A DNA stretch of 64,000 nucleotides from Christensenellaceae bacterium (GCA_963665005.2 CAXXTQ010000002.1:12964-76963); one strand, 5' to 3'. Positions 4,243-42,517 are shown, counted from the first letter of the stretch. Notes: generated by a model not told the origin, from the sequence alone. A program made the numbers and translations.

Positions 4243-4253
4243 TGGAGATTCTT

Positions 4254-6341: not shown

Positions 6342-6379
6342 TTCGTTATGCTGCTTTTAAAATTATCTTGGACTTATTT

Positions 6380-26068: not shown

Positions 26069-26894
26069 CAATACGCTGCTTAATAAGATAATAAAAAGAG
26101 CGCTCGAAGAAGATTTGAATACAGGCGATATAACAACAATGAGCACCGTGCCAAAAGAAACAAATATCAGCGGAAATTTTATCGCCAAGACAGATGGTAT
26201 TCTTTGCGGAATAGATATCGCAAAATCGGTTTTTGCGTACTTAGACCCGCAGGTTAAATTAGACTGCTTTTTCAAAGACGGCGATACTGTAAAAAAAGGC
26301 GATGTCATAGCCAAAATTAAAGGGCGGGCAATATCTGTGCTCTCGGGCGAAAGGCTCGCGCTTAACCTTATGCAGCGTCTTTCGGGAATAGCCACCAAAA
26401 CAAGACAGGCGGCAGATAAGGTTGCTAATTTTGATGTAAGAATCCTTGACACGAGAAAGACAACGCCGGGGCTGCGCATGCTCGAAAAATACGCAGTGCG
26501 AACGGGCGGCGGATATAACCACCGCTTTACGCTCTCTGACGGCGTGCTCATTAAAGACAACCATATAAAAGCGGCGGGCGGTATAGGCAAGGCCGTTTCG
26601 GCGGCAAGAGATTTTGTGCCGCACACTTTAAAGATTGAGGTAGAAGTCGAGACGATTGAGCAGGTTAAGCAGGCGCTTGCTGCCCGCGCGGATATCATAA
26701 TGCTCGATAACATGAGCAATGATATGATGAGCCAGGCGGTTGCATTAATAGACAAAAAAGCATTAGTTGAAGCGTCGGGAAACATGGACGGAAAAGACCT
26801 TCGCGAAGTTGCCGAGACCGGCGTCGATTTTATATCGATAGGCGCGCTTACTAATTCGGTTAACCCACTGGATATAAGTTTAAAATTTGATTAA
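26061..26894 (+). CDS. nadC: Nicotinate-nucleotide pyrophosphorylase (carboxylating)
   Basis: ALEEDL..GDITT, TRKTTPGLR and MLDNM. Start ATG 26061 overlaps the nadB stop. Confidence 0.9.
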   Translation: MIDNTLLNKIIKRALEEDLNTGDITTMSTVPKETNISGNFIAKTDGILCGIDIAKSVFAYLDPQVKLDCFFKDGDTVKKGDVIAKIKGRAISVLSGERLALNLMQRLSGIATKTRQAADKVANFDVRILDTRKTTPGLRMLEKYAVRTGGGYNHRFTLSDGVLIKDNHIKAAGGIGKAVSAARDFVPHTLKIEVEVETIEQVKQALAARADIIMLDNMSNDMMSQAVALIDKKALVEASGNMDGKDLREVAETGVDFISIGALTNSVNPLDISLKFD

Positions 26895-26906
26895 AGAGAT
26901 TTTTGG

Positions 26907-26937
26907 AAAAGCCGCAGCAAAAATGCTGCGGCTTTTT
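26907..26937. terminator. Bidirectional rho-independent terminator (nadC on plus; ancestral tRNA-Gln flank on minus)
   Basis: Stem gccgcagca/tgctgcggc with an AAAA loop, flanked by an A-run upstream and a T-run downstream. Confidence 0.75.
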
Positions 26938-26941
26938 CCTT

Positions 26942-26964
26942 TGGCAGCGGAACTAGGATTCGAA
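26942..26964 (-). repeat. Direct repeat 1: copy of the 3-prime 23 nt of tRNA-Gln (att-like)
   Basis: tggcagcggaactaggattcgaa is identical to 41861-41883 and to 42137-42159 (T-loop to CCA end of tRNA-Gln), in the same orientation. Confidence 0.85.
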
Positions 26965-27340
26965 ACAGAATTAAACGTATTTTCTGGTATTTTCCTGTTA
27001 TGTCATGTCCAGAAAATGCCTTTATAAAGGCATTATTTGTTTCGTTGTGTCTATAGCGTTCCAAGCGATTATAAAGCTTTTGTATCCAAACCAATATTCC
27101 TATTTTTTGATAATGAGTATATTATAATATTCCACAATCATTTTTCAGAGTGAGCTTTTTGCATTAGTATCTTTCCTCCTAATTGCCTTTGAAGCTATGA
27201 TTCCTTGACTTATTTTAATGTCTACCTCTTGTAATTTGCTGATGATCTATTCATCTGTGTAAATTCTTTTAGCAATATTCCTTCATCTCTTGATTTATTA
27301 TATCATCAGTAAATCCCCACTTTTCATACCTTTAACCAGC
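26965..27340 (-). mobile_element. Heavily decayed transposase/integrase remnant at the island edge
   Basis: Only short interrupted frames. The minus-strand translation contains EKMIVEYYN...IKK and FGYKSF, reminiscent of the C-terminus of rve/IS3-type DDE transposases. No intact ORF. Confidence 0.25.
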
Positions 27341-27343
27341 TTT

Positions 27344-28879
27344 TTAGCTCTCCCCCATATCCTGCAGCCTCTCAAAGAAACCATGAAGCTCTACCATATA
27401 CTTAGAGTAAAGCTCGATATGCTTAGCATATTTCTCTTTCATTTCCGGCTTTGGATCATAAGCCTTCTCTTCTTTGACAAACCGTTTCGCCGTCTCTTTT
27501 ATATCCTTGAACACGCCTATCGCATTGCCCGCTAGTATCGCCGCTCCCCACATAGCAACATCCTCGCGGTTCAGCGTCTTGTACCTCTTCCCCTGTGCGT
27601 CAGCGCACATCTGTGTCCAGACAGGCGATTTCGCACCGCCGCCTATTATCTTTATGTTATCAATATTGTACTCAGGATAAAGCCTCTCGATGCTTCTTAA
27701 GCATAATGTAAAATCGTAGGTAAAGCTTTCGAGCAACGCTCGGTAAAAATGTTCTTTCTTATGGCTCCAGTCATGCCCCATCCACAATCCTCGCAAAGCT
27801 CCGTCAAGCGGCATCGAGCTCCCGCCTAAAAGCCCCAGCGCCATAAGCCCGTCGCACCCTATCGGCAACGCATCTACCTTCTTCTCTATCTCGGCAAACA
27901 TCTCTTTTGTAGAAACGCCTTCTTGTCTTACAAAAGTATTCATGAACCAGTCAAGCGTTATTCCCGAACCGGCAACGAAGTGTACCGCGTAAAACTCACC
28001 GGGTACAGCCGATGGAACGACATCAAGCCGCCTCTCCTTTAGATCCGGCCTGTATTGCTCCACACACGTACTGATCATACCATACGAAGACGCTTCAAAA
28101 ATCGTCTCTCCGGGCGTCACAATAGCGGCCCCTAGCGCACCAGCAGCTTTATCGCCCGCCCCGGAAACAAGCGGAACGCCTTCCTTCAACCCCATTACAT
28201 CAGCCATTTTCCCGGAAAGACGGCCGCATATGTAGTTTGACCTCACTATTTTTGGCAGATACTTTTTTTCAAGTCCTATGGCGTCACATATCTTGTCAGA
28301 CCATTGGTCGTTTTGTACATCCGCAAGTCCCGTCCATTCTGTATACGACCTGTCTATTACCGCTTCTTCTATCGGCACATTCCCAAGCCTGCCGATAACA
28401 TATCCGCTAATCATCAGATACTTGGCGATTTTTTTGCTTTCGTCGGGAAACTCATTTTTGAACCATTCATATTTTGGAGCCATCTGAGGAAAATTAGTAC
28501 CCGCAATCCCTAGGAAGTCATCCTTGAGTTCCCCCATCTGCCGCTCCGCATACGGCATATACCGGCTGTCAAGCGAGCAAGACCAAGTTGTTATATCATT
28601 CCAGTCCTTGTCTACCCCCATGAATCCGGACATCTGCCCGGTAAAAGCGATAGCCTCTATGTTTTTAGCACGGTCTCCAAGCGCTTGCGATATCTTTTTT
28701 ACGCATTCAACTACCGATTCAAAAAGCTCCTCGCCTTTCTGTATAAACACTCCCGGGCTTGGCCGGTAATCTTTTACAGGCTCATTTGCAATCGCCACAC
28801 AATTACTTGACGTATCATATACTCCCGCCTTTATGAAGCTCGTCCCAAGGTCAACCGCCAGCAGTAATACTTCTTGCAT
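27344..28879 (-). CDS. FGGY-family carbohydrate kinase (xylulokinase-like)
   Basis: 511 aa. N-terminal LAVDLGTSFIKAG and C-terminal GGGAKSPVW motifs. Confidence 0.85.
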   Translation of the reverse strand: MQEVLLLAVDLGTSFIKAGVYDTSSNCVAIANEPVKDYRPSPGVFIQKGEELFESVVECVKKISQALGDRAKNIEAIAFTGQMSGFMGVDKDWNDITTWSCSLDSRYMPYAERQMGELKDDFLGIAGTNFPQMAPKYEWFKNEFPDESKKIAKYLMISGYVIGRLGNVPIEEAVIDRSYTEWTGLADVQNDQWSDKICDAIGLEKKYLPKIVRSNYICGRLSGKMADVMGLKEGVPLVSGAGDKAAGALGAAIVTPGETIFEASSYGMISTCVEQYRPDLKERRLDVVPSAVPGEFYAVHFVAGSGITLDWFMNTFVRQEGVSTKEMFAEIEKKVDALPIGCDGLMALGLLGGSSMPLDGALRGLWMGHDWSHKKEHFYRALLESFTYDFTLCLRSIERLYPEYNIDNIKIIGGGAKSPVWTQMCADAQGKRYKTLNREDVAMWGAAILAGNAIGVFKDIKETAKRFVKEEKAYDPKPEMKEKYAKHIELYSKYMVELHGFFERLQDMGES

Positions 28880-29034
28880 TTTCCCTTTTCCTCCTCAATA
28901 ATCTCTCTGTTAAAACAATTTGAGAGCAAAAGACAATCTTATTGCAGCTTGTCAAATGCCCTCAAATCACCCCTTCACTCTACTAAAAATCAGAGGTATT
29001 AGCATCTATATATTTTTTGTTCGCACCTTTTTAC

Positions 29035-29808
29035 TCATACTCCCGTATCAGTCTTTTCCTGATTCGGCTGTCCGTTCCAAGCCGACAAGCCTCCGTCCAC
29101 GGGAATGTTCACTCCGCATAGATGTGTAGCCTGATCGGACGCGAGATATACGATCACGTTTGCGCACCACTCCGGCTCGCACAACGCCCTTGCGGGCATA
29201 TTCTTGCGGAAACTCTCCAAAACCGCTCTAGATGCGCCCGTTAAAAACATTGGCGTCTTGACCGCCGAAGGCGATATTATGTTAACACGCACGCCCTGCA
29301 TTGAGTAATCCATGGCTACTGCCCTCGACATCGCTATAACGGCGCCTTTTGTCGCGCAGTAAAGCGACATGTTATAATCTCCGCCCATACCAGATACTGA
29401 TGCAACATTAACTATTGCGCCCTTCTTCTTGGCGAGCATCTGGGGCCCGAACGCCTTCATGGTATGGAATGTACCGCGTACATTTACATCAAACTGGAAA
29501 TCATAGTCCTCTTCCGGCGCATCCTCAATCTGCCCAACTCGGAACACACCCGCACAGTTTGCCAACACATCCGCTCCGCCTGCATCGTTAACCATCTTTG
29601 CAAGAGCCTCTACCTGTTCCCATTTGCCTACATCCGCAGCCTTACAGAAAACATTACCCGGATAATCCTTTTCGAACTCGCCGCATACGCTCTGAAGCTG
29701 ATCCGCTTTCCAATCCGTCATAAAAACTTTATCACCAAGCTTCAAGAAAGCTTCTACCGTTGACTTGCCAACTCCTGATGCAGCCCCTGTAACTACTACA
29801 TTTCTCAT
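29035..29808 (-). CDS. Short-chain dehydrogenase/reductase
   Basis: TGAASGVGKS cofactor motif and YCATKGAV catalytic YxxxK. Confidence 0.9.
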   Translation of the reverse strand: MRNVVVTGAASGVGKSTVEAFLKLGDKVFMTDWKADQLQSVCGEFEKDYPGNVFCKAADVGKWEQVEALAKMVNDAGGADVLANCAGVFRVGQIEDAPEEDYDFQFDVNVRGTFHTMKAFGPQMLAKKKGAIVNVASVSGMGGDYNMSLYCATKGAVIAMSRAVAMDYSMQGVRVNIISPSAVKTPMFLTGASRAVLESFRKNMPARALCEPEWCANVIVYLASDQATHLCGVNIPVDGGLSAWNGQPNQEKTDTGV

Positions 29809-29820
29809 TTTATTACCTCC

Positions 29821-30219
29821 TTAAAGCGCCTGGCAGAGTTCTATGTGCTCGTTATCCGGCCCACGGAAAAACACCCACTTGGTGCCATTCGGGAACATAT
29901 CCGCACAGAACATCTGATCTTCCGTCTCAAACTTAATTCCTTTTGCCTCCAGCTCTTTACGGATTTCTTCTATATCATCCACCGCGTAAGCAACATGATC
30001 TGTCATGCCATCTCCCGGATTGGAACCGATCTTCCTCTGCACCAATTCCAAACATACGCTCCCCTTCTTTACAAATGCACACGTAAACGTATTCCCGTCT
30101 GCATCAAAAGAACATTGCTCTATGCACTCAAGTCCTAATATATCATTATAAAACTTCTTAGATTTCTCCACATCGTCCACAAATATACCGATGTGCCCTA
30201 ATCCAGTTACTTGTGCCAT
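29821..30219 (-). CDS. VOC/glyoxalase-family protein
   Basis: 132 aa with GLGHIGIFVDD and HVAYAV metal-ligand contexts. Confidence 0.75.
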   Translation of the reverse strand: MAQVTGLGHIGIFVDDVEKSKKFYNDILGLECIEQCSFDADGNTFTCAFVKKGSVCLELVQRKIGSNPGDGMTDHVAYAVDDIEEIRKELEAKGIKFETEDQMFCADMFPNGTKWVFFRGPDNEHIELCQAL

Positions 30220-30230
30220 ATCTTTTCTCC

Positions 30231-31247
30231 TTAATTCTTAATCAACACTTTTATACAATTCGAAGAATTATTCATCACGAATTCAAATGCTTCTTTTACT
30301 TTATCTAATGGGAATTCCTGTGTTAACAACAAATCTAAATTTATTTTCTTTTTTTCAACCATTTTAGCCGCTTCTCTAAAATCTTCCCATGTATATTCAA
30401 GTGCACCCCGAATCGCTATCTCTCTATCTTCTACCCGGAACATATCCACCTTCGGAGTCATTCCATAAACCCCCATTGCGATAACTTCTCCACCACGATC
30501 TGTATGTTTTACACATGTTGAGAGGCTCTTTTCGTTTCCAACGCACTCAAACGTGTATCTGGTATAATTCTTTCCTGTCTCTTTAACCAATGTTTCTTCA
30601 ACAGACTCTTTTAAAATATTTATGGGTATTAATCCCAGCTCTTCTGCTATCTTTAATCTGCTATCTATAAGGTCGGAAATAAAAACTTTTTTTGCGCCCT
30701 TGTTTTTTGCAGAAACCGCTGTCAAAAGGCCGATTGTTCCCGCTCCTGATACCAACACATTTTCACTTCTAAGCTCTTTAATCATATTCGCACCGTGGAC
30801 ACCAACTGCCAGCGGTTCAATCATCGCAGCATGACGCAAATCAGTGTTATCATCTAATACAATTGCATTATCAGCATCAACAATAAAATAATCAGCCATC
30901 CCTCCCATATAGAACGTCTGTTCAGGACATATTGCCACTAAACCTTTTTTACAGGTCCAGCATTGCCCGCAACTTCTTACCGGTTGTACTGTAACTTTTT
31001 TGCCGATTTCTAAACCTTTCACACCAGAACCTATGTCGTCTACGATTCCTGAAAACTCATGCCCCAATTCAACCGGATATTTACCTTCCATCAGCGGATG
31101 CTCGCCTTTGAATATATGAATATCCGAACCACATATCCCGCAATAAGCCACTTTAATTCTGACTTGTCCCGATCCGGCCTTAGGCATTTCCATTTCTCTA
31201 ATATTCAAATTTTTTATATCTTCACAATACACTTGTTTCATATTCAT
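30231..31247 (-). CDS. Zinc-dependent polyol/alcohol dehydrogenase (sorbitol dehydrogenase-like MDR)
   Basis: CGICGSD, GHEFSG, structural-Zn Cys cluster CGQCWTCKKG, and GAGTIG Rossmann motif. Confidence 0.85.
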   Translation of the reverse strand: MNMKQVYCEDIKNLNIREMEMPKAGSGQVRIKVAYCGICGSDIHIFKGEHPLMEGKYPVELGHEFSGIVDDIGSGVKGLEIGKKVTVQPVRSCGQCWTCKKGLVAICPEQTFYMGGMADYFIVDADNAIVLDDNTDLRHAAMIEPLAVGVHGANMIKELRSENVLVSGAGTIGLLTAVSAKNKGAKKVFISDLIDSRLKIAEELGLIPINILKESVEETLVKETGKNYTRYTFECVGNEKSLSTCVKHTDRGGEVIAMGVYGMTPKVDMFRVEDREIAIRGALEYTWEDFREAAKMVEKKKINLDLLLTQEFPLDKVKEAFEFVMNNSSNCIKVLIKN

Positions 31248-31272
31248 TTATTCTCCATATTTTTCAATTTAT

Positions 31273-32118
31273 CTATACAAGCTTTTTCTCTGCCTCTTCA
31301 AGCACCTTGAGCCCGTCTATCCAATACTTATCCGTTTGGAAACGAGAACCGTCACATCTTTCCATATAATCGAAAAAGAACGCAACGGGCGGCAGCAATT
31401 CAAGCGCAAGATATCCATCATATCCGATATCTTTTAGCGTTTGCAATATTTTTACGAAATCATGTGACCCCGTTCCCGGAGCCTCTCTTCCGCTGTCCGA
31501 AAGATGAATATGCACAAGATAATCTTTTTGATCGATAAGCGCCTGATACATATCCTTTTCTTCAAATTGCATATGGAAAAAGTCCCCGTGCACCCCTATG
31601 TTAGGCATGTCTACTGCTTTTACCCACCTAACCGCTTCTGCAAGCGTATTAATAAGATGATTGTCGTATCTATTCCAAGCTTCAAGGCAAAGTGTGACAT
31701 CATGCTTTTGAGCATATTCCGTAGAGATACGCATACTTTCAACACCATACTTAAACTCGTCCTCAGGATCCGCAAGCGGTACCGGTTTTAAAAATTCGCC
31801 GGGATATACGATAGCCATGTGGCAGTCCTGCTCAGAAGCAAAATCTATTGTTTTTTTCATATAATCGATTGATTTTTTACGAACTCTTGTTATTGGGCTG
31901 GAGAGGCAGGTTCCTTCTAGAAACACGCTGCACATCGAACCCATCTTCAATCCTTCGCCTTCAAGGACTTCTTTTATCTCTTTGGATTTTTCATAGTAAT
32001 CATTGAATCCGGGTATTTCTACATATTTAAACCCGCATCTGGCTGCCCTTTTGAAAGATTTAGCTATATCCTCCACTGGGCGGTTTATCATTGAATTGTA
32101 TTCATATTTGAATTGCAT
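31273..32118 (-). CDS. Xylose-isomerase-like TIM-barrel protein (ketose 3-epimerase-like)
   Basis: Metal-ligand contexts LEAWNRYD, VHGDFFHM and LALELLP resemble the tagatose/psicose 3-epimerase family. Confidence 0.65.
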   Translation of the reverse strand: MQFKYEYNSMINRPVEDIAKSFKRAARCGFKYVEIPGFNDYYEKSKEIKEVLEGEGLKMGSMCSVFLEGTCLSSPITRVRKKSIDYMKKTIDFASEQDCHMAIVYPGEFLKPVPLADPEDEFKYGVESMRISTEYAQKHDVTLCLEAWNRYDNHLINTLAEAVRWVKAVDMPNIGVHGDFFHMQFEEKDMYQALIDQKDYLVHIHLSDSGREAPGTGSHDFVKILQTLKDIGYDGYLALELLPPVAFFFDYMERCDGSRFQTDKYWIDGLKVLEEAEKKLV

Positions 32119-32195
32119 TTATTATACCTCCTTCAATAGGTTAACTTATTATTTTTCATGGTCTTCATTGCATAAATTATTGATACTGCCTATTG

Positions 32196-33152
32196 CTATT
32201 TTTCTTTAGCCATACGTAATTTCTGTAAACAATCAAAGCTTACCGCCAACAACAAAACAACACCCTGTACAACAATTTGCACATACTCGCTTACATTTGC
32301 CAGAGCCATACCATTTGCAAGCACGCCCATTATAAACACACCAATCAAGCAACCAAACACTGAGGCCGATCCACCTGAAATACTTGTTCCTCCCAGAACA
32401 CATGCTATAATAACATCGAACTCAAACCCTCCTCCTGTATTCGGCGATCCTGTGTTGATCCTTGAAAGGGTCACTATACCTGCTATACATGCAAATACAC
32501 TGCTCAACACATATACGCTCGTCTTCATGACGTCAACATTTATACCAGAAAGTTTTGCAGCTTCCTCGTTTCCTCCTATGGCAACATAATATCTGCCATA
32601 AGTCGTTTTATAAAGCAATAACCATGCCAATACAAAAGTAATCGCAAAGATAATTACAGGTATCGGGATATATGCCAAGTACCCTTGTCCAATTACTTTA
32701 AATTCTGTAGTAAAACCATATATGGGTAACCCGCCGCATATAAGGTAGGCTGCACCTTGAAGTATTTTCATAAAAGCAAGCGTCGCAATAAAGGGCGGTA
32801 TCTTTACCTTCGTAATAAACAAGCCAGTAATCAAGCCCGCTATAATGGCCATGACAATGCATATTAGTATTGCCAGGTACATATTCATACCCATATTAAC
32901 CATCATGTAGGCGCATATGATATTTGTAAATGTAACTTGTGAGCCTACTGATAAATCTATACCTCCCACTAACAATACAAACATCATACCTGCAGCGGCA
33001 ATCCCGACCATTGATACTTGTCTTGCAATATTTAACGTATTGTTAATTGAAAAGAAATTATTTGCAGTAAATGAAAAGAATATAACAAGAGCAATTAACA
33101 CAAATACGATTGCATACTTCCCTAAGAATTTCGCCTTTCCTTCTTTATACAT
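32196..33152 (-). CDS. CUT2 sugar ABC permease (RbsC-like)
   Basis: 318 aa, about 9-10 TM, typical RbsC/branched-chain permease pattern (GGIDLSVGS). Confidence 0.9.
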   Translation of the reverse strand: MYKEGKAKFLGKYAIVFVLIALVIFFSFTANNFFSINNTLNIARQVSMVGIAAAGMMFVLLVGGIDLSVGSQVTFTNIICAYMMVNMGMNMYLAILICIVMAIIAGLITGLFITKVKIPPFIATLAFMKILQGAAYLICGGLPIYGFTTEFKVIGQGYLAYIPIPVIIFAITFVLAWLLLYKTTYGRYYVAIGGNEEAAKLSGINVDVMKTSVYVLSSVFACIAGIVTLSRINTGSPNTGGGFEFDVIIACVLGGTSISGGSASVFGCLIGVFIMGVLANGMALANVSEYVQIVVQGVVLLLAVSFDCLQKLRMAKEK

Positions 33153-33171
33153 TATATACCATTTCCTCCAT

Positions 33172-34665
33172 TCAACTTACCTTTGATGCATAGTGCATTA
33201 TTTTTTCTTGAGAAAACTCTTCTCTTTTTAACTGGGCTCGTATTTTCCGTTCGCACAAAACAAGTATTCGATCAGACATTCCCATTAACTCAGGCATCTC
33301 CGACGAAATCATAATTATTGTTTTACCCTGTTTAACCATCTCATTTATGAGTATGTATATTTCATATTTTGCCCCAACGTCTATACCTCTGGTCGGCTCA
33401 TCCATTATAATTAGATCGGGCTGTGCCGCAAGCCATTTTGCAACAACAACCTTTTGCTGGTTGCCCCCGCTCAGATTTTTCACAAGCTGTTGTATAGACG
33501 GTGCTTTTATTGTAAGTGCATTTTTATATTTATCAATAATTTTTCTTTCTTTACTTCTATTGATCCAGGACAAAAAGGATATCTTACTTAACATAGCAAG
33601 CGTAATATTCTGGGCAATTGACATATGTGCTAATATACCATGCTCTTTACGGTTTTCCGGCACCAACACGATTCCGTGAGCAATCGCATCTTTGGGAGAT
33701 TTAACATGTATTTCCTTCCCCTTCAATTTCAACTTTCCAGATTTTATCTTTGCAGTGCCGAATATTAATTGCGCCATCTCCGTACGCCCAGCACCTACAA
33801 GGCCGCCCAAGCCCAGTATTTCTCCTCGATATAGCTTCATATTTAAGTTTTCAAATCCATTACCTGATACCCCTTCCATTTCCAGCAGTACTTCATCGGT
33901 AATCTGGGGCTCCTCTTTAGGAAATATGTTTTTTATTTCACGTCCTACCATCATTGTAATAAGCGTATCTCTTGTTATCTCGTTTGTATCCATAGTCGTA
34001 ATTAGCTTACCATCCCTCATAACAGAAACTCTGTCAGATACCTCAAATATTTCTTCTAATCGATGTGAGATATATATAATACTGACTCCGGAGGCTTTCA
34101 ATGTTCTTATCAATTTGAATAACGTCTCCACTTCTGCATCTGTCAATGGTGCAGTGGGCTCATCCATTATCAACACTTTTATATCCGTTATTAATACTTT
34201 ACCGATTTCAACTAGCTGTTGATATCCAACGGAAAGATTTTTTATTTGATCGTTTATATCTATCTTTATATCTAACTGATCAAACACCTGCAGGGCACGC
34301 TTTTTCATTTCTTTTTTCTTTAAAAATTTCCCAACCTTTATCTCTCGTCCCAAGAACAGATTTTCCCACACGGTGAGTTCATTTACCAGATTAAATTCCT
34401 GATAGATAACACCAATACCTAATTCTTTCGAGCTATGTGGGTTAAAACCTTTATATTCTTCGCCTTCAATTACTATCGTACCGGAGCTGGGTTTATGTGC
34501 GCCTGCTGCAGTTTTTATCAATGTTGATTTGCCTGCGCCATTCTCACCAACAAGCGCATGCACCTCACCCTTACGAAGTGAAAAGCTCACATCATCTATT
34601 GCCAAAACACCCGGAAACGTTTTAGTAATATTACGAAATTCAAAAAAAGTCTTTTTATTTCCCAC
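33172..34665 (-). CDS. CUT2 sugar ABC ATP-binding protein (RbsA/MglA-like, tandem NBD, intact motifs)
   Basis: GENGAGKST, LSVGYQQ, LIMDEPT, GLVGAGRTE, LSGGNQQK and IIMDEPTRGID. GTG start with GAGGAA RBS. Confidence 0.9.
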   Translation of the reverse strand: MGNKKTFFEFRNITKTFPGVLAIDDVSFSLRKGEVHALVGENGAGKSTLIKTAAGAHKPSSGTIVIEGEEYKGFNPHSSKELGIGVIYQEFNLVNELTVWENLFLGREIKVGKFLKKKEMKKRALQVFDQLDIKIDINDQIKNLSVGYQQLVEIGKVLITDIKVLIMDEPTAPLTDAEVETLFKLIRTLKASGVSIIYISHRLEEIFEVSDRVSVMRDGKLITTMDTNEITRDTLITMMVGREIKNIFPKEEPQITDEVLLEMEGVSGNGFENLNMKLYRGEILGLGGLVGAGRTEMAQLIFGTAKIKSGKLKLKGKEIHVKSPKDAIAHGIVLVPENRKEHGILAHMSIAQNITLAMLSKISFLSWINRSKERKIIDKYKNALTIKAPSIQQLVKNLSGGNQQKVVVAKWLAAQPDLIIMDEPTRGIDVGAKYEIYILINEMVKQGKTIIMISSEMPELMGMSDRILVLCERKIRAQLKREEFSQEKIMHYASKVS

Positions 34666-34750
34666 TTAATTTCCTCTTTCGTTTTTTTTATAATTCTACA
34701 GACACGAACAGCAAATATATTACCGTTCGTGTCTGCACCTATTTATACCT

Positions 34751-35866
34751 TTATTCTAAATAATCTCCAAAATACGCCAGGGCTTCGTAATCAACCGTTA
34801 CTTCAATATCATAATTGAGCTGTTCCATCATTTCAGGTAAGTTATCATAAGTAATTGGAAGTACAGGCATATACAAAACACTTTCATAATCTTCGCCGCG
34901 TACAACCTTCATTGTTTCATCTATCATAGCTTCCGCGTGAAGAGCTCCCCCTCCAAGATTTGCACAGCCACGTATATAACCGCCCATGGCCATTAACGTA
35001 ACCGCTTCCAAGCTACCGTCGATTGTGAAAATACCAAAGTCATCATCAGCATTGGCCGCTACAATCGCCTCGTTTGCGCCAACACCGCCGCCATCACCAA
35101 AAGATAGAATGATGTCCATATCGGGGTAAGCCTGGAGCATGTTTTCAGCTCCATCAAATCCTTCAGTTGCTACCAAAGCGTCTTGCTCTATAACGACCTC
35201 CGCGTTAGGAGCCAGTTCTGCAAGAGCATCTTTCATTCCTTGAACACGCGTTGCGGCTATATCAGGAAATACGCTACTCCCGAATACTCCAACTTCAATT
35301 GTTTCCTTATTTTTTAGTGTTTCATGCTCATTGATCCATGCCGCTGCCATAGTACCACACATCACACCCGCATCATGATCAGGCATAGCATATTTAATAT
35401 CATCGACTAGAGATTCGGTCGTATAAGCACAAAGCGCAATGCCGTTGTCCTTTGCCTTCTGAAGCACGTCTTCACCTGCAGTTGTTGGCGTAATGTATAT
35501 AATGCCGTCATAACCAGCCGTAATGAAATTTTCCATTTGCTCAACAAATTTGCTGGGATCATCATCATAAGAAACGGATGTTACGTTGGCATTATACTTT
35601 TCCTTTGCATATACTTCTGCATGATTAACAAGATCAACCCAAACACTGTTAGTAAGGCCGCTGAATACGATGCCGAGCTGGTACTCCTTAGCAGTCTCGT
35701 CAACGCTATCATCAGGCTCTTCGCCACCATTTTCCGCAGTCTCTGTATCTACCGCTTCATCGGTAGACTGAACTTCGTTAGGTGCACCTGTACAAGCAGC
35801 AAATACAAACGCTAATAATAAAACTAACAGTACAAACGCTATGCTCCTTTTCATCTTCTTCACCAT
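34751..35866 (-). CDS. Sugar ABC substrate-binding lipoprotein (PBP1-like)
   Basis: Signal peptide plus lipobox (VFAAC), an acidic linker, then a binding-protein fold sequence. AGGAGG RBS. Confidence 0.85.
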   Translation of the reverse strand: MVKKMKRSIAFVLLVLLLAFVFAACTGAPNEVQSTDEAVDTETAENGGEEPDDSVDETAKEYQLGIVFSGLTNSVWVDLVNHAEVYAKEKYNANVTSVSYDDDPSKFVEQMENFITAGYDGIIYITPTTAGEDVLQKAKDNGIALCAYTTESLVDDIKYAMPDHDAGVMCGTMAAAWINEHETLKNKETIEVGVFGSSVFPDIAATRVQGMKDALAELAPNAEVVIEQDALVATEGFDGAENMLQAYPDMDIILSFGDGGGVGANEAIVAANADDDFGIFTIDGSLEAVTLMAMGGYIRGCANLGGGALHAEAMIDETMKVVRGEDYESVLYMPVLPITYDNLPEMMEQLNYDIEVTVDYEALAYFGDYLE

Positions 35867-36050
35867 TTTTGTTCCTCCTTTTGTTTTTACAATTTATACA
35901 ATCCACATAGCCGTGTTACATAAGCAAACCACAAAATACGGATTGTCGCTATTGCTCAGCATCATTTATACTAACACTCGCTCAATAAACCGTCTACGCG
36001 ACACTTTCTAGATTTCTCATGCCATTTTCAAGATATTTAATTTTGGTCAC

Positions 36051-36080
36051 TTGCTTTTATTATTTATAAGGGACTATAAT
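36051..36080 (+). promoter_or_regulatory. Candidate sigma-70-type promoter for the RR2-HK2-P2 operon
   Basis: TTGCTT, 18-nt spacer, TATAAT (36075-36080), about 30 nt upstream of the RR2 start. Confidence 0.3.
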
Positions 36081-36111
36081 AAAATAGGGAAAGGGGGATA
36101 AAATTAAATTT

Positions 36112-37725
36112 ATGATTACATCAAAGAAATTGTCAACAATAATCATAGATGACGAACCTAATGTCTGTGACTTAATAAAGCATTTAGGGAATTGGCAGGA
36201 GTTAAATATCGAAGTCATCGGAGAAGCAAATGGTGGTCAACAGGGTCTTGCCTTAATTCGAAAATACAAACCAGATATCGTAATAATTGATATGAGGCTT
36301 CCGGGGATTAGCGGAATTGATATTATTAAAAAATGTTTTACAGAACATATTTCGTCAAAATTTCTAGTTGTTAGTGGCTATAAAAAATTCGAATATGCTC
36401 AACAGGCTCTCACATTAAACGTTTCAGGGTATCTCCTCAAACCTATTAACAAATATGACCTTAATTCTGCCCTTAAAAAAATAATTACAGAGATTCAAAA
36501 TTCTTATGTTGCCAAGAATCATTTGCAAACTCTCTCCTCAACAATCGATATAAAACAAGGATATTTATGGGAGCAGCTATTTTTTGCATTGACCGAACAA
36601 AAAAGGAATAACATTGATATAAATAAACTTAGAAAAACTCTTGGAATTTCCAACGATAATATAAGCTTTGTATTTTTTATCGTTAAAATAGATGCTTTAA
36701 TTGATACATTAGATATAAATTCATTATTAAAACAGATTAATGCTTTATTAAAAAAATACTTTAATGAACAAGCTCCCTTTCCCTTACATATTTTCAAAAC
36801 CGAAAATCGCCTTTTTAGCATTTTATATTATGAATCGGCCAGTCCCTACAACGCCACGTCGATATTTAATAATATCTATCAACTAGTAAATAAAAAAATA
36901 CTTCCAGCCAAAGCAAAAGTAACTATAGGAATTAGTTCGAAAAAAAATAGTTTTTCTGATTTGCCGTCAGCATATCGCGAAGCCACAGCCTGCATAGAAT
37001 TTCGTCGTTATAGTACACAAAATATAATTTTGTATACCCCGGAAATCCCGTTGGTCCCAAAAGAATTTGCTGTTCCTCAAAAATATGAAGACAAAATCAT
37101 AAGAGCTATAGAAATCCAAAGTAAAGAAAAGGCTTTACAAATCTTTAATGATTTTTGGTCAGAATTTTTGCCCACTTTTAAGCCTCGCGGCAGTTTATTC
37201 ATTACAATTAGCGCATTTGTGGAAACATGGTGTTCAATACTTAATAGCTATTCTAAACATACGGATTTTTTTCAAAAAGAAAAATATATGCTTATTACAT
37301 CAATAGATAATGAAATGAACCTCAATAAAATTAAGGATTATGTTTCCATAATGATCAAATCTTCTATTAAACAATATGCTGACTGCCATAAATCATGGGG
37401 GGACCAATATATACGAACAGCTAAAAAATATATTGCAGAAAATTTGGGAAATGGTTTAACATTGGATGAAGTTGCTGAAGCAGTATCTTTAAATCCAATA
37501 TATTTTAGTTCATTATTTAAAACAAAAACCGAAATGAATTTCTCCAGTTATATCCAAAAGCAACGTATAGATATGGCTAAGCAACTACTTCAAAAATCTA
37601 AGTCTCCCATCAAAGTCATTAGTTCTTCCGTCGGTTATCAAGATATCAATTATTTTACAAAACTGTTTAAAAGGTATGTCGGAATTACTCCATCTGCATA
37701 TCGGCGTATGCATTTTCCAATTTAA
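36112..37725 (+). CDS. Response regulator, CheY receiver plus AraC/XylS HTH (YesN-like), RR2
   Basis: IIIDDEP, DIVIIDMRLP and LLKP. C-terminal AraC HTH (LNPIYFSSLFKTKTEMNF, GYQDINYFTKLFKRYVGITPSAYRR). Confidence 0.9.
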   Translation: MITSKKLSTIIIDDEPNVCDLIKHLGNWQELNIEVIGEANGGQQGLALIRKYKPDIVIIDMRLPGISGIDIIKKCFTEHISSKFLVVSGYKKFEYAQQALTLNVSGYLLKPINKYDLNSALKKIITEIQNSYVAKNHLQTLSSTIDIKQGYLWEQLFFALTEQKRNNIDINKLRKTLGISNDNISFVFFIVKIDALIDTLDINSLLKQINALLKKYFNEQAPFPLHIFKTENRLFSILYYESASPYNATSIFNNIYQLVNKKILPAKAKVTIGISSKKNSFSDLPSAYREATACIEFRRYSTQNIILYTPEIPLVPKEFAVPQKYEDKIIRAIEIQSKEKALQIFNDFWSEFLPTFKPRGSLFITISAFVETWCSILNSYSKHTDFFQKEKYMLITSIDNEMNLNKIKDYVSIMIKSSIKQYADCHKSWGDQYIRTAKKYIAENLGNGLTLDEVAEAVSLNPIYFSSLFKTKTEMNFSSYIQKQRIDMAKQLLQKSKSPIKVISSSVGYQDINYFTKLFKRYVGITPSAYRRMHFPI

Positions 37726-37732
37726 ATATGGT

Positions 37733-38776
37733 ATGAATATGAAATTATTAAAAAATAAAAATAATAAAATAAATTTTTTTTCTCATGCTGCTTTTGTACT
37801 ATATTGCCTATTATTTTCTGCGCAGATTTTCTCGCTTTATTTTATTTATCTTGCATATAGAGTATCCTTATTAAGTATTTTGTATTTCTTTTTTATAATT
37901 CTTTGTATGCTATTTTTTATTTTCATTATAATTCGGCCAATATATAAGAACTACAAACGCGGCAAAATTGCTGGCATTGTTGAAAACAATCCTTTTAAAA
38001 TGCTAAATAGCCTTGCTTCAGGTGCGTGGGTGAAAATCATTGAAGAAAACAATAATTTAGTTAAAAAAGACTACTCTAATAAAATACTTCTTAACCAAAT
38101 GAAATTTCAAACATTGCAAAATCAAATAAATCCTCATTTTTTATATAATTCCCTTGATTCTGTCCGTGGACTGGCAATAAAGGCAAAGGACTATTCTACA
38201 GCAGAAATGGTAGAAGCTCTCGCCTCATTTTTCAGATATAACATTGGTAATGAAAATGATATCGTTGAATTGCATCAGGAAATACAAAGTATACGCAACT
38301 ATTTTATTATCCAGAGATATCGTTTCTCAAATCGTTTTAAACTTGAGTGCCATTTTGATCAGAAAGACTCCTCAATTATTCAATATATGATTCCAAAACT
38401 AATAATACAACCGTTAGTAGAAAACGCAATATTTCATGGACTCGAACCCAAAGAAGGCAAAGGTTTCGTCGCCATCAATGTCCGTAAAACTACACACAGA
38501 CTGTATATATCAGTTGCCGACAATGGCGTAGGGATGAGCGACGCAGAATTACACTATCTCAATAAAAAATTGCTTTCAATTAAAAAAACTTCGCAAGGCT
38601 TATCTATTAGCGAAGATATGAAACATAAAAACATTGCTATACCTAATATAAATCAACGCATAAAAAGTATTTTTGGAGAAGATTTTGGTTTGCATATCAG
38701 CAGTACGCTCAATCTTGGTACAGAAATCGAACTCTCTCTCCCATTTCCATCACAGATAAAGGATTACAGCCAGTGA
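37733..38776 (+). CDS. Short LytS/YesM-type histidine kinase without an extracytoplasmic domain, HK2
   Basis: Two adjacent TM helices, a short linker, H-box INPHFLYNSLDSVRG, N-box QPLVENAIFHG and G-box ADNGVGM. The start is ambiguous (ATG 37733 or 37739; the ORF-track start 37676 overlaps RR2). Confidence 0.85.
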   Translation: MNMKLLKNKNNKINFFSHAAFVLYCLLFSAQIFSLYFIYLAYRVSLLSILYFFFIILCMLFFIFIIIRPIYKNYKRGKIAGIVENNPFKMLNSLASGAWVKIIEENNNLVKKDYSNKILLNQMKFQTLQNQINPHFLYNSLDSVRGLAIKAKDYSTAEMVEALASFFRYNIGNENDIVELHQEIQSIRNYFIIQRYRFSNRFKLECHFDQKDSSIIQYMIPKLIIQPLVENAIFHGLEPKEGKGFVAINVRKTTHRLYISVADNGVGMSDAELHYLNKKLLSIKKTSQGLSISEDMKHKNIAIPNINQRIKSIFGEDFGLHISSTLNLGTEIELSLPFPSQIKDYSQ

Positions 38777-40182
38777 TAGACGAATTGCTTAGAATTGAAG
38801 ATTTATACGGCTATTATATTGAGAAAACAATACTTGATCATGTTGCTTTTAGTCTTTTTAATGGCGAAATTTTGTGCCTATTTGGATTGAATAATTCCGG
38901 GAAAAGTACTATTATCCGCATCTTTTCGGGCAAAATACACGGCGTCTGGGAAAAAAGAATATATTATAAAGGTAACCCTATAACAATTGATTCTCCAACC
39001 GAATCAAAAAAACTTGGAATTGCATGTATACAATCTAACTCTTCGCTACTGGATACTTTTACGGTATCAGAAAGCCTTTTTATAATGCCTGAAATTTCTC
39101 CAAAACGCACCTTTATCTCATATAAAAAAATTAATAAAAAGACTGCTCAAATCCTAAAAAAATTTGATCTCGATATAAACCCTACCGACATAGTATGCAA
39201 TCTTAGTCAAGCCAACCGCTTCCTTCTTGAAATTGTTAAAAATATAGTAGATGAAAAAGAAATATTCTTTATTGACTGTCTTCATGTATTCAGGCAAAAA
39301 ACTGATTTTGATAAACTTAGAAAAATTATTATTAGCCTTAGAGAAACTGGTAAAACCATTTTATTTACCAGTAATAATTACCACCAAAACCTTTCCTTTG
39401 CTGATCGTATTTATATATTACGTGATGGTATGATCGTAAAGGAAATGACTGCTTCAAATTTTACTCCAAAGCTCTTAAAGAAATATGCAGCTAAACAGTT
39501 TTATATTCCAACATCGAATAGCAAAGTAGAAAAAGATTCATCTATACTGCTAGACATTAAAAACCTCAATGTTAACAAAAAATCTCATGCGCTTTCTTTT
39601 AAAATCTTTAAAGGTGCAATAACTGCTGTTGCATCACAAAATAAAAATTTGCTGCATGAATTAGCTAACTATTTTATTGACCCATATCCACAGAATATTT
39701 TTGTGAAAATTAATGGTATGAACGTTACACACAAGAAATTCTGCAAATGGCTCAAACGCAATTCCAGCACTATATTAAACCTATCTAAAAGCGTTTGTAG
39801 ATTTTATAACATGAGTGTTTTAGAAAACATTACTGTAAGTGCTAAACCTTCTTTCCCATTCCCTAGATTATGGATTAATAAAAAAGTCAAAAGCTTTATA
39901 GCTACTGACAATAAACATCTTATTGATGTTGTAGAACTACTAGATAAACAAGGAGGTGACTTTGTCGTCTACAATGCATTTCTTCTTATAAAACGACTTA
40001 TATACCGTAAGATACAATTTGTCGTATTCTACTGCCCCGAATTTGGACTTGATCCCTTAAGTATTACTTGGATCTACTCAGTAATTGAAGAACTCTGTAA
40101 AAAAGGTATTGGTGTATTGCTACTTACTGAGAATGGTAATGAGGCGTCCCCTTTTTGTTCCCATACTATTTGGATAGGCTAA
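38773..40182 (+). CDS. Degenerate tandem-NBD ABC ATPase homologue (Walker A kept in NBD1, catalytic residues lost), called P2 here
   Basis: 469 aa. GTG start forms a GTGA overlap with the HK2 stop. NBD1 has Walker A GLNNSGKST intact, but the signature is LSQANRF, Walker B is IFFIDCLH (catalytic Glu is Cys) and the H-loop is TSNNY. NBD2 has no Walker A, and the Walker B region is FYCPEFGLD. Confidence 0.85.
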   Translation: MIDELLRIEDLYGYYIEKTILDHVAFSLFNGEILCLFGLNNSGKSTIIRIFSGKIHGVWEKRIYYKGNPITIDSPTESKKLGIACIQSNSSLLDTFTVSESLFIMPEISPKRTFISYKKINKKTAQILKKFDLDINPTDIVCNLSQANRFLLEIVKNIVDEKEIFFIDCLHVFRQKTDFDKLRKIIISLRETGKTILFTSNNYHQNLSFADRIYILRDGMIVKEMTASNFTPKLLKKYAAKQFYIPTSNSKVEKDSSILLDIKNLNVNKKSHALSFKIFKGAITAVASQNKNLLHELANYFIDPYPQNIFVKINGMNVTHKKFCKWLKRNSSTILNLSKSVCRFYNMSVLENITVSAKPSFPFPRLWINKKVKSFIATDNKHLIDVVELLDKQGGDFVVYNAFLLIKRLIYRKIQFVVFYCPEFGLDPLSITWIYSVIEELCKKGIGVLLLTENGNEASPFCSHTIWIG

Positions 40183-40479
40183 TTCTATTGACCAGTTTTC
40201 AGGAAAAAGGTCGCAAAGTTCAAGAATACCCCCTGTCAGTGTCAAATAAATGGCCTATTGCCAAAACCTTTTTTTATGTCTAAAACAGATTAAATAATGC
40301 ATTGTTCTCATCTATTTGTACTGTGGGAAAGCCATCGCTCCTAAAAAATAAACGTCAATAATCAAAAGAAGTAATAAACCGCAAATACGTTATCCTCACA
40401 AATATTTAAAAACTGAAATGTGTCCAAACGTCCTTTTTTTAAAGTTCACAAATAAGCGAAAACTACGTAACCATCGTGG

Positions 40480-41835
40480 GGCGTGTTGACAAAATGGTCA
40501 ATACAAAACGAAAAGCCTGAGAAAAGTCAGGGTTGGAGGTAATAATATTCATCCGTACCAATCAATTTATGGTTCTGTTCCATATGCTCCGTATAGAGAT
40601 CGTTTGATTTTCCTTATCGTAGAAGTAGCTGTAAAACATTTTTCCCTTAGACCGCAACTTCGGCATTTTGGGGCGCTGCTTCTGTACAAAGCATATATGT
40701 GCTCGCCCTTACGTTCATAATAAGAAAAATGAAGGGTATGCCCTCCTGGACAATGGTATACATTTTTTTCTTTATCGTAGATAAATTCTTCTGCAGGTAA
40801 TTCGTTCTTTCGAAAACCAACATGTTTCTGACTTTCGGGAATATAGAGTGTTATACCCATTTCGCCAAAATCGTGATGTGCTTCCACACAATCATATCCA
40901 CGATCCGCAACCATATTTTGAATGGGCAATTATAATCGATCATGCTGAATTTTTATCCTATCTGTACAACATTCATGATCCAAACGATTTCCGATTGTTA
41001 CATGGATATCAGTAATAATCCCGTGCTTTATGTCGGCGCATTGGTGGCAAAGGTAATGAAATCCTCCCGGCTTCCCCCGCCGCCCTAACATTCCACTATC
41101 AGAATCGATCAGGTTTTGCACTTCTTGCCTTTTTCGTAGCTTAGCTCTTGGTTTTGGTTTTAGCCCACGCTTTTTCTTGCAGGAATACTTCTCTGCTTAC
41201 AATGCTTTAATATGCTCGAGGGAATTCCAGGACGGTCACTATAACTCTCTTTTTATCATCTGTATTAGCTTTTACATGGGTTGCATCCATAGCAATTGAT
41301 TTACCTTCTACTAAACCCGCCTCTATGCAAAGACGTACAATATGTACGAATATATCCTCAAAGATGGTTGTATTTTTAAATCGGCGACATCTGTTTTGTG
41401 AAAAGGTCGAATAATCCGGTAATACGGTCTTCCAGATCTAACCCCAGGTACCATCAATATGCAATATTGACCTGTACTTCCTGTTCAAGCCTCTCTCAGA
41501 ATTGATGCCGTACAAATATCCAGCAGAAGCATCTTTACCAGCACTACGGAATTAATTGATGTCCGTCCATATTTGCTATACATGGGACGCACCACATCAT
41601 ACACAAAATTCATGTCAACAGATGCATCCAGCTTCCTTAAAAAATGATCAGCCGGGGCAAGGCTATCCATTGCTATCATCATAAGCCGTTGTTGCTTGTT
41701 TCGTTCTTCGCTCATCATTGAAATCGCCCGCTTTTATTATACATAAATATTCTGTATTTTTCCCTTTTTGCGGCATTTTTTCATTCCTTATACTACAAAA
41801 GTCATCGGCTTATCCGATGACTTTGTCAACACGCC
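40480..41835 (-). mobile_element. IS5/IS1182-superfamily insertion sequence, internally deleted and non-autonomous
   Basis: 13-bp perfect terminal inverted repeats, GGCGTGTTGACAA (40480-40492) and TTGTCAACACGCC (41823-41835). Flanked by the 8-bp direct repeat CATCGTGG (40472-40479 and 41836-41843), which looks like a target-site duplication. Confidence 0.75.
40567..41718 (-). pseudogene. Disrupted IS5/IS1182-type DDE transposase
   Basis: The N-terminal DUF772-like segment (LAPADHFLRKLD...YSKYGRTSI), the middle part and the ADRGYD...CRSCGLREKC segment lie in at least three different frames. The C-terminal catalytic region is missing. Confidence 0.75.
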
Positions 41836-41860
41836 CATCGTGGTTTCCGGGGTTTTCTTG

Positions 41861-41883
41861 TGGCAGCGGAACTAGGATTCGAA
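41861..41883 (-). repeat. Direct repeat 2: copy of the 3-prime 23 nt of tRNA-Gln (att-like)
   Basis: Identical to 26942-26964 and 42137-42159. The preceding T-stem sequence is not conserved, so it is not a tRNA. Confidence 0.85.
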
Positions 41884-42104
41884 GGCGGGAGCCGCCCTTC
41901 ATCTTACGTTCGAGTTGCTTTGCTACCAGTGATATTTTTTTGTGTCTATATGCTTTTATAATCTTTGGCTCTTTTTACTAGGTTCTCACCACGATTCCAC
42001 AGTCAAAACAAAAAGACGATAGTTTTCTTTCGGGGCCCCCGCAAAGCACAGCTTTGTGGGGAAAAGGAGGAGCAAGGGAGCGGACGGATGTTTTTCATGA
42101 AATG

Positions 42105-42132
42105 AAAAACGGAGCAAAGCGTACTTTGCTCC
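42105..42132 (-). terminator. Rho-independent terminator of the tRNA-Val/6S/tRNA-Gln operon
   Basis: 9-bp stem ggagcaaag/ctttgctcc with a 4-nt loop, then GTTTTT on the minus strand, 4 nt after the tRNA-Gln CCA end. Confidence 0.75.
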
Positions 42133-42136
42133 GACG

Positions 42137-42210
42137 TGGCAGCGGAACTAGGATTCGAACCTAGACACTACGAGTCAGAGTCGCAGGTGCTACCGTTACA
42201 CAATTCCGCT
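42137..42210 (-). tRNA. tRNA-Gln (anticodon CTG)
   Basis: Hand-folded cloverleaf: acceptor AGCGGAA/TTCCGCT, anticodon stem TGCGA/TCGTA, loop CTCTGAC, T-arm CTAGG-TTCGAAT-CCTAG, encoded CCA. Confidence 0.9.
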
Positions 42211-42217
42211 TTATAAA

Positions 42218-42392
42218 TATCCCACAGATGCCGTCCGCCAAAGTTTTAACGCCTGCACACTCGCAGGTGGGTGCTCTGCCAAATGCCTCTGCCCTCCCGT
42301 CTAAGCGGGCCCGGTATCAGCAAGCGGACTCCCGAGCTCCCGAAAACATTTTGTAGGTTTAAAACAAGGGCGTTATCGAACACCGCAGGATA
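42218..42392 (-). ncRNA. ssrS: Structured 175-nt RNA, most consistent with 6S RNA
   Basis: GC-rich segment between two tRNAs. The ends pair over about 10 bp (UAUCCUGCGG with CUGUGGGAUA). GGUGUUCG near the 5-prime end and UUAAAACU...GGCGGACGGCAUCUG near the 3-prime end resemble E. coli 6S as I remember it (GAUGUUCG, UUAAAACU, GGCGGCAUCUC). The size fits 6S. Confidence 0.5.
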
Positions 42393-42469
42393 TGGTGGGG
42401 TTAATTGGGCTCGAACCAACGACCTCTACGATGTCAACGTAGCGCTCTGACCAGCTGAGCTATAACCCC
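42393..42469 (-). tRNA. tRNA-Val (anticodon GAC)
   Basis: Hand-folded cloverleaf: acceptor GGGGTTA/TAACCCC, D-arm GCTC..GAGC, anticodon loop TTGACAT, T-arm GTTGG-TTCGAGC-CCAAT, encoded CCA. Confidence 0.9.
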
Positions 42470-42489
42470 TTTAAAAATCCGTACCTCAT

Positions 42490-42517
42490 ATTATACACAA
42501 TCTCGCGATTAAATCAA
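42490..42517 (-). promoter_or_regulatory. Candidate promoter of the tRNA-Val/6S/tRNA-Gln operon
   Basis: Minus strand TTGATT, 16-nt spacer, TATAAT, about 20 nt upstream of tRNA-Val. Confidence 0.35.

Follow-up and report, generated by a model that had tools for sequence, protein, structure and literature searches.

A probable tandem array of two decayed integrants at the 3′ end of a tRNA-Gln gene in a Christensenellales-like bacterium

Introduction

Tandem accretion at the 3′ ends of genes and cis-mobilizable elements (CIMEs) have been described for elements related to the integrative and conjugative elements (ICEs) ICESt1 and ICESt3 of Streptococcus thermophilus and for the tRNA-Lys arrays of S. 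agalactiae (PMC5704250, citing Pavlovic 2004 and Bellanger 2011). The ssrA islands of Dehalococcoides likewise lie in tandem, downstream of a small-RNA gene and bounded by direct repeats (~20 bp) of its 3′ end; 15 of these islands have no integration module and carry metabolic cargo, and the crossover falls in the T-loop region (PMC3146451). Here we analyze a locus of similar layout in 64,000 nucleotides of DNA from a Christensenellaceae bacterium (GCA_963665005.2, CAXXTQ010000002.1:12964-76963), the whole of which is called the window below. Three copies of the 3′ end of a tRNA-Gln(CTG) gene mark out a 15.2-kb interval between this gene and nadC. We consider it probable, at roughly 70%, that two site-specific integrants, both now decayed, have accreted in tandem here at the tRNA-Gln 3′ end: E1, a 14.9-kb CIME-like element without an integrase, and E2, a stub of 253 bp, the size of an attP (the attachment, or att, site of an incoming element).

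Classical tRNA islands and prophages with tyrosine integrases have an intact tRNA gene at one end, a partial copy of it at the other, and the integrase gene beside the tRNA. The host of the present locus is Christensenellales-like; its best NadC match among GTDB species representatives is 73% identical. For comparison, we fetched a set of 98 loci, designated by L-numbers where they have to be told apart.

Results

Three copies of the tRNA-Gln 3′ end

The repeat that delimits the interval is a 23-mer, TGGCAGCGGAACTAGGATTCGAA, with three exact copies in the window, all of them on the plus strand:

26942-26964, plus strand: copy A of the tRNA-Gln 3′ end, exact 23/23 match; distal att-type scar
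41861-41883, plus strand: copy B, exact 23/23 match; internal att-type site between the two segments
42137-42159, plus strand: copy C, the last 23 nt of the real tRNA-Gln
42137-42210, minus strand: tRNA-Gln(CTG), found by ARAGORN and by Rfam (RF00005)

Because both programs place tRNA-Gln(CTG) at these positions on the minus strand, the 23-mer is the complement of the T-loop-to-CCA end of that tRNA. It comprises the T-loop (7 nt), the 3′ strand of the T-stem (5), the 3′ strand of the acceptor stem (7), the discriminator and the encoded CCA. The extra copies A and B both lose identity to the tRNA at one and the same base, the junction of T-stem and T-loop. The locus thus shows the arrangement expected of a tRNA island: one end is formed by the intact tRNA-Gln, the other by a direct repeat of its 3′ portion. 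Perfect 23-bp cores flank E1 (A to B, 14,896 bp) on both sides as candidate att sites; E2 (B to C) spans 253 bp. An earlier note on this DNA, made from the sequence alone, had reported three copies of the repeat in one orientation, their identity with the tRNA-Gln 3′ end and the two segment lengths, and on each of these points our results agree.

A source that is probably a metagenome-assembled contig raises the question of whether the 23-mers could be a chance or dispersed repeat, or an assembly artefact, with no relation to recombination at the tRNA. Yet the chance expectation is 0 (100 shuffles) against the 3 copies found, and these share one orientation, lie within 15.3 kb downstream of the tRNA and are identical to its 3′ end. 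No additional site occurs in the window even when 3 mismatches are allowed, and sub-cores of 12-16 nt recover only the same three positions. A dispersed repeat, which the earlier note had named as the finding that would overturn it, is therefore not what the window contains. Moreover, homologues of the flanks of each copy occur independently in other genomes, and assembly chimeras are caused by k-mers longer than a 23-bp repeat. We regard this explanation as effectively refuted.

Boundaries and arms of E1

The features at the two ends of E1 are as follows:

26061-26894: nadC (Pfam assignment)
26905-26938: terminator hairpin of nadC, bidirectional, about -25 to -26 kcal/mol on either strand, z about -5.5
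26965-27343: distal non-coding arm of E1, with no open reading frame (ORF) that matches a family
40415-40479: left half of the tRNA-proximal arm of E1, including the left target-duplication copy
40480-41836, minus strand: relic of an IS1182-family insertion sequence (IS), transposase frameshifted and partly deleted (Pfam DDE_Tnp_1_6)
41837-41860: right half of the tRNA-proximal arm, what is left of a disrupted terminator hairpin, with the right target-duplication copy

Copy A is separated from the nadC hairpin by 3 nt, in agreement with the earlier statement that the distal copy abuts a bidirectional terminator beside nadC. Since L093 likewise has a terminator hairpin after nadC, its stem bases being similar (AAGCCGC...GCGGCTTTTT), the hairpin of the window can be assigned to the backbone side of the left boundary, and in an accretion model the junction of nadC terminator and copy A would be the original chromosomal one. 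Beyond copy A, the distal arm of E1 contains a palindromic terminator-like hairpin (27015-27034) and has no homologue among the fetched loci.

The tRNA-proximal arm is interrupted by the IS1182 relic, which accounts for the IS debris mentioned in the earlier note. Its three ORF fragments match positions 3-67, 248-307 and 312-417 of the 488 of NF033551, its terminal inverted repeats are GGCGTGTTGACAAA / TTTGTCAACACGCC, and it is flanked by an 8-bp target duplication, CATCGTGG, the left copy of which occupies 40472-40479. When the IS was removed in silico, the rejoined arm (40415-40479 plus 41845-41860) aligned over about 95 nt to positions 1254-1334 of L086, the sequence directly 3′ of the tRNA-Gln of that locus. 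The aligned part includes the terminator hairpin; in the window its stem is by now decayed. Because the arm at copy B is homologous to a tRNA-adjacent flank, the B junction would be a former junction between a tRNA end and an element arm; and because the IS and its target duplication lie inside this arm, the B junction would be older than the IS. We also considered a composite transposon and rejected it, as the only IS1182 relic is internal and has its own 8-bp duplication, with no pair of IS copies bracketing the interval.

Absence of recombinase and transfer genes

According to the earlier note, no recombinase ORF remains and only IS debris is present. Domain searches, gap sizes and tblastn agree on this across all 64 kb. 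No Phage_integrase, Resolvase or Recombinase domain was detected by Pfam in any ORF scanned, and every ORF of at least 110 aa in the interval has another Pfam assignment. The non-coding gaps of the interval are shorter than 400 bp, too small for a recombinase gene, and their short ORFs, judged by eye for integrase remnants, resemble no known protein. When a tyrosine integrase and two serine recombinases encoded at related loci were compared with the window by tblastn, no match resulted. Both flanks of the island encode housekeeping genes.

Genes for conjugation, mobilisation, virions, replication, relaxases or coupling proteins are likewise missing among the interval genes, which are metabolic, transport and regulatory apart from the one IS relic. 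With no conjugation, mobilisation or virion genes and no match in phage, plasmid and IMG/VR collections, we discarded the idea of an autonomous ICE, integrative and mobilizable element (IME) or prophage. E1 has retained attL/attR-type repeats and is devoid of integration and transfer genes, two of the features that characterize a CIME. As to an origin from an ICE or IME, the sole trace is that its proximal arm is homologous to the L086 tRNA flank over about 95 nt; no conjugation or relaxase remnant accompanies it. E1 would be unable to move by itself and could be mobilized only by an integrase of the same specificity acting in trans. The island, described as fixed in the earlier note, is probably immobile at present, although an integrase encoded elsewhere in the genome could act on it.

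tRNA-Gln as an integration hotspot in relatives

The backbone around the interval (SbcC, SbcD, aminotransferase, shikimate dehydrogenase, LysM and nadABC on one side; tRNA-Gln, 6S RNA, tRNA-Val, Fer4 and DUF4364 on the other) is collinear with L082, the closest informative locus (NadC 80%, DUF4364 81%). There, nadC and tRNA-Gln are 2.8 kb apart, with two Zn-dependent alcohol dehydrogenases (ADHs) in between, compared with 15.2 kb in the window. We asked whether these dehydrogenases could be orthologues of the island ADH, as in a shared and shrinking island, and dismissed the idea, since they are only 25% identical to it. L093 and L094 (NadC 79-81%) have other genes after nadC. Among the contexts of NadC matches at 78-81%, one locus (L082/L083) is collinear and three (L081, L093 and L094) are not. 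Collinear flanks combined with differing fillers identify the interval as a variable spot in a conserved backbone, with insertion polymorphism seen between species only. A gene order common to all relatives, the other outcome that the earlier note took to be fatal, was thus not found: the 2.8-kb filler of L082 is unrelated, and the genes that follow nadC in L093 and L094 are different ones.

Recombinase-bearing elements do occur at this tRNA in relatives. In L085 a tyrosine integrase gene (8043-9100) abuts a tRNA-Gln cut just after the anticodon loop, and the 3′ half of the tRNA is absent from the remaining 9 kb of the contig; this insertion is of a different, anticodon-loop type at the same tRNA. 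In L090 the gene for a 522-aa large serine recombinase (5073-6641) ends about 100 bp from the tRNA-Gln 3′ end. L086 has a putative helix-turn-helix (excisionase-like) ORF of 37 aa, judged from sequence only, about 220 bp from tRNA-Gln, as well as a 259-aa ORF after the tRNA flank that has no Pfam match. Repeated tRNA ends are found in two further loci, L088 with three tandem units (891-1322; 144 nt each) and L091 with one (8679-8825; 147 nt). Each unit is made up of 21 nt of the tRNA-Gln 3′ end, an arm of 85 nt and a terminator hairpin. Between L088 and L091 the unit arm is 94% identical and the hairpins differ. The unit folds no better than shuffled sequences (z -0.71). These units could be amplified att-only remnants or miniature integrative cassettes.

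Taken together, the tRNA-Gln end appears to be an integration hotspot used by different mobile elements across related genera. The earlier proposal of site-specific integration at this site is supported by the repeats, the synteny break, the recombinase genes at the same tRNA in L085 and L090 and the homology of the B arm to L086. As a separate observation, a two-gene AriA/AriB-like (PARIS-type) defence module (L090 6970-8625, minus strand) lies between 6S RNA and tRNA-Gln, splitting the RNA operon described below; the large serine recombinase gene of L090 is on the other side of the tRNA.

The stub E2 and its terminator module

E2 consists of two parts, the second of which, module N, adjoins the target operon:

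41884-42032: distal arm of E2, with no homologue found among the fetched loci
42033-42136: module N, 104 nt with three hairpins; on the minus strand it supplies the intrinsic terminator of the tRNA-Val/6S RNA/tRNA-Gln operon
42215-42394, minus strand: 6S RNA, between the two tRNAs (Rfam RF00013, 78.9 bits versus a gathering score of 46.4)
42393-42469, minus strand: tRNA-Val(GAC), first gene of the operon (ARAGORN and Rfam)
L089 18907-19012, L088 about 777-890 and L091 about 8566-8678: further copies of module N

A promoter-like site just upstream of tRNA-Val (42517-42490), an intrinsic terminator just downstream of tRNA-Gln (42133-42110) and the packing of the genes indicate that the target tRNA-Gln is the last gene of a tRNA-Val/6S RNA/tRNA-Gln operon. 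This arrangement is kept in seven related loci from several Christensenellales-like genera. The RNAs are packed with spacers of 0-5 nt in the window (42137-42517, minus strand) and also in L082, L085, L086, L088, L089 and L091.

Module N folds far better than shuffled sequences (z -4.6/-5.5 on the two strands). It recurs beside tRNA-Gln end copies in L089, L088 and L091, which represent three other genera, a distribution that a simple integration model does not foresee; it is found nowhere else in the 98 loci or in the window, and the closest relative, L082, does not have it. In every occurrence N lies directly 3′ of a tRNA-Gln end copy: the intact tRNA in the window and L089, and the far side of the tandem units in L088 and L091, where the displaced native flank would be expected. 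Neither N nor the tandem unit gave anything relevant in Rfam at E up to 10, and N, the unit arm and a 19-mer sub-core of the repeat, sought as attP, are absent from IMG/VR viral contigs. A conserved G-T pair in hairpin A of the module, noted by inspection, favours an RNA read from the plus strand.

How the module is related among these loci bears directly on the origin of E2. Between the window and L089, N is 88% identical, while the adjacent 6S RNA is 75% identical, and within the L088/L089/L091 clade N identity is 66-75%. Because of this incongruence, the stub with its module would have arrived horizontally, and the comparison suggests that E2 is the collapsed two-arm remainder of a second integrant.

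A single integration offers a different account of the same arrangement. In it, N is the native flank, the junction of tRNA and N is an unoccupied attB, and E1 entered a pre-existing duplicate of the tRNA end about 250 bp downstream, splitting it into copies A and B. The presence of N beside tRNA-Gln end copies in three other genera, and beside the intact tRNA in L089, speaks for this account; in L091, moreover, about 3 kb or less separates N from backbone genes (LysM, aminotransferase, SbcD), and the repeat does not recur there, and extra downstream tRNA-end copies do exist in L088 and L091. Those copies, however, sit between the tRNA and N, not beyond N, and the closest relative is without N. 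The excess of N identity to L089 (88%) over that of 6S RNA (75%) and over that of N within the clade is unlike vertical descent, and the duplicate itself would still require an earlier site-specific event. We therefore consider a single integration unlikely.

The stub and the tandem units of L088 and L091 lend themselves to one further, tentative idea. They could be miniature gene-less integrative cassettes, consisting of two att arms and a terminator for the target tRNA operon, which integrases acting in trans would move between genomes and amplify in tandem. Its basis, besides the N and 6S values for the window and L089, is the unit arm identity of 94% between L088 and L091, where 6S RNA reaches 85% and N 75%. 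We would not put the odds of this high. The conservation of N and of the tandem units could reflect horizontal spread or a selected function, for instance that of a structured RNA not yet recognised or of a module that binds protein at the operon end.

Cargo genes and composition of E1

Between its non-coding distal arm and its IS-interrupted proximal arm, E1 carries two gene groups:

27344-35866, minus strand: sugar/polyol catabolic and uptake operon of eight genes (Pfam, NCBIfam and strata of GC content at third codon positions, GC3)
36112-40182, plus strand: regulator triad divergent from the sugar operon, namely an AraC-type response regulator, a YesM-type histidine kinase and a degenerate double-domain RbsA-like ATPase (Pfam, NCBIfam)

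By coordinate, the operon encodes an FGGY kinase (best model xylulokinase), an SDR protein, a VOC/glyoxalase protein, a Zn-ADH, a sugar isomerase/epimerase with a TIM barrel, and the permease, ATPase and binding protein of a CUT2-type ABC transporter. On the minus strand the transporter genes are thus at the 5′ end (binding protein, ATPase, permease) and the FGGY kinase comes last. Judging by domain content, E1 appears to be laid out as a self-contained locus for sugar or polyol utilisation with its own regulator. Kinase homologues with 74-83% identity occur in comparable sugar clusters elsewhere, and full-length homologues of the island response regulator do not exceed 31% identity in a database of 5.8 billion proteins; from the matches of these two proteins no donor could be named.

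Composition divides the cargo into three strata. GC content is 0.44-0.51 for FGGY/SDR/VOC, 0.38-0.44 from the ADH through the binding protein and 0.31-0.32 for the regulator triad; the corresponding GC3 values are 0.48-0.53, 0.33-0.40 and 0.26-0.29, with 0.42-0.53 for the backbone. The mosaic GC content described in the earlier note is therefore real but less extreme than stated there, as the lowest 1-kb window has a GC of 0.288 and not 0.23. In GC3 the regulator triad and the ABC/ADH genes depart from the backbone and FGGY/SDR/VOC do not. Low GC by itself is no marker of the island, for a low-GC triad is also found outside it.

These data are relevant to the possibility that the cargo genes are old chromosomal residents, the repeats having been left by small transient elements or rearrangements, and that the 15 kb was never mobile as a whole. 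The GC3 of FGGY/SDR/VOC resembles that of the backbone, the genes form a coherent operon with its regulator and have no mobility, replication or transfer genes among them, and a distantly paralogous low-GC triad is present outside the island (967-6017). Against this, under site-specific integration the integrant comprises all DNA from the distal repeat to the tRNA, and copy A is only 3 nt from the nadC terminator, with copy B at the other end of the cargo. Furthermore, the collinear L082 does not have these genes at this place and other relatives have yet others after nadC. A long-resident cargo seems to us improbable.

Two side observations concern the cargo families. The unusual triad of the island has a counterpart at 967-6017, and both consist of an AraC-type response regulator, a YesM-type histidine kinase and a degenerate RbsA-like double ATPase of 469 aa. 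Mutual identity of the two triads (967-6017 and 36112-40182) is only 19-35%, GC3 is very low in both (0.25-0.32), and the histidine kinase of the island triad is short, 366 aa compared with 591 aa in the other. In another organism, an FGGY kinase 74% identical to that of the island is part of a long sugar cluster (L095-L098) with a SorC-type regulator, a CUT2 transporter, an AraA-like isomerase, a glyoxalase and two Zn-dehydrogenases, running on into a bacterial microcompartment operon. The pairing of kinase and two dehydrogenases in that cluster recalls the two dehydrogenases in the gap between nadC and tRNA-Gln of L082.

Discussion

A proposed two-step history of the interval

We propose that every element arrived with an attP containing 23 bp that match the tRNA exactly from T-loop to CCA. 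An integrase would then have recombined the two sites, so that the tRNA was rebuilt from the copy of the element and the old tRNA end, with everything after it, was pushed outward. This enzyme most likely belonged to the tyrosine recombinases and acted in the T-loop, because the identity block starts at the T-loop, a crossover sublocation in tRNA genes that Williams, writing in Nucleic Acids Res (30:866) in 2002, reportedly assigned to such enzymes. Read from the tRNA, the order would be tRNA body, copy C, E2, copy B, E1, copy A and nadC terminator. A first element with the 23-bp attP core would have integrated at tRNA-Gln, and a second one likewise, using either the copy in the tRNA or the distal copy. 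Deletions would then have taken the mobility genes of the first element and almost all of the second. Finally, IS1182 would have inserted into the terminator hairpin of the tRNA-proximal arm of E1 and later decayed.

If the array was mobile, the sequences of its products can be predicted. An empty site would read ...GCTGCGGCTTTTTCCTTTGGCAGCGGAACTAGGATTCGAACCTAGACAC..., a deletion of E1 by recombination of A with B would read nadC terminator, 23-mer, GGCGGGAGCCGCC..., and the junction of circular E1 would read ...CGGGGTTTTCTTG, 23-mer, ACAGAATTAAACG...

Several of our results weigh against this history. The earlier note had suggested a comparison with related genomes; the repeat-bounded interval does differ from its relatives, but an empty site, with the nadC terminator joined to tRNA-Gln, was present neither in the GTDB relatives by NadC (<=73%, no tRNA-Gln nearby) nor in the contexts of the 78-81% NadC matches. 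L082 has a different filler and no extra repeat copy, and an exact look-up of the NadC protein (two start codons; 100% match P0001) found no second genome of the species. No recombinase, nor a recognisable remnant of one, is left from which the enzyme class could be read. If both integrants belonged to one family, the arms to the right of A and B should be related; the 11-mer that they share, TTGTGTCTATA, is insignificant, as 82 of 500 shuffles score equally well, and neither arm has significant similarity to the tandem units of L088 and L091. The island DNA has no match in plasmid and phage records (megablast), and the 23-mer is absent from IMG/VR. As for the cargo, FGGY/SDR/VOC are backbone-like in composition, and the best foreign match of the kinase (83%) is no closer than that of NadC (81%). 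Finally, module N stands beside the real tRNA: were it the native flank, the junction would be an unoccupied attB and the two-integration model would need amendment.

Comparison with known systems

If tandem accretion is the correct explanation, an uncultured Christensenellales-like bacterium would have acquired, and then domesticated, a sugar/polyol operon with its regulator through a tRNA-Gln integration hotspot. The mechanism is a textbook one, in which elements accrete in tandem and the integrase is then lost, and the finding mainly adds an example from a poorly studied clade. For specialists, the main interest is in the conservation of the tRNA-Val/6S RNA/tRNA-Gln operon, in the 104-nt terminator module with its horizontally incongruent similarity and in the tandem att-like units that carry no genes.

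With the classical tRNA islands the interval shares a T-loop-to-3′-end identity block, an intact tRNA with a partial copy and a mosaic composition; unlike them, it has no integrase gene beside the tRNA. As in CIME arrays (PMC5704250), E1 stands in tandem with another integrant, the two share an internal att site, and the repeats correspond to the 3′ end of the gene targeted. Unlike in those arrays, the window has no functional partner element, the second unit being a 253-bp stub, and no relaxase, coupling-protein or integrase remnant survives in E1 to indicate descent from an ICE or IME.

The Dehalococcoides ssrA islands differ in their target, which is the transfer-messenger RNA, in a family integrase, DsiB, which is a serine recombinase embedded at attL, and in their cargo of reductive dehalogenases (PMC3146451). 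The corresponding properties of the window are tRNA-Gln as the target, no integrase in the window and a cargo for sugar catabolism. Common to both are tandem segments bounded by repeats of a small-RNA 3′ end, a crossover in the T-loop region, which in the window is presumed, and metabolic cargo without an integration module. Integrase-less tandem islands bounded by tRNA or tmRNA ends (PMC5704250; PMC3146451) are already well known, and the locus described here is an ordinary further example of them in an under-sampled clade.

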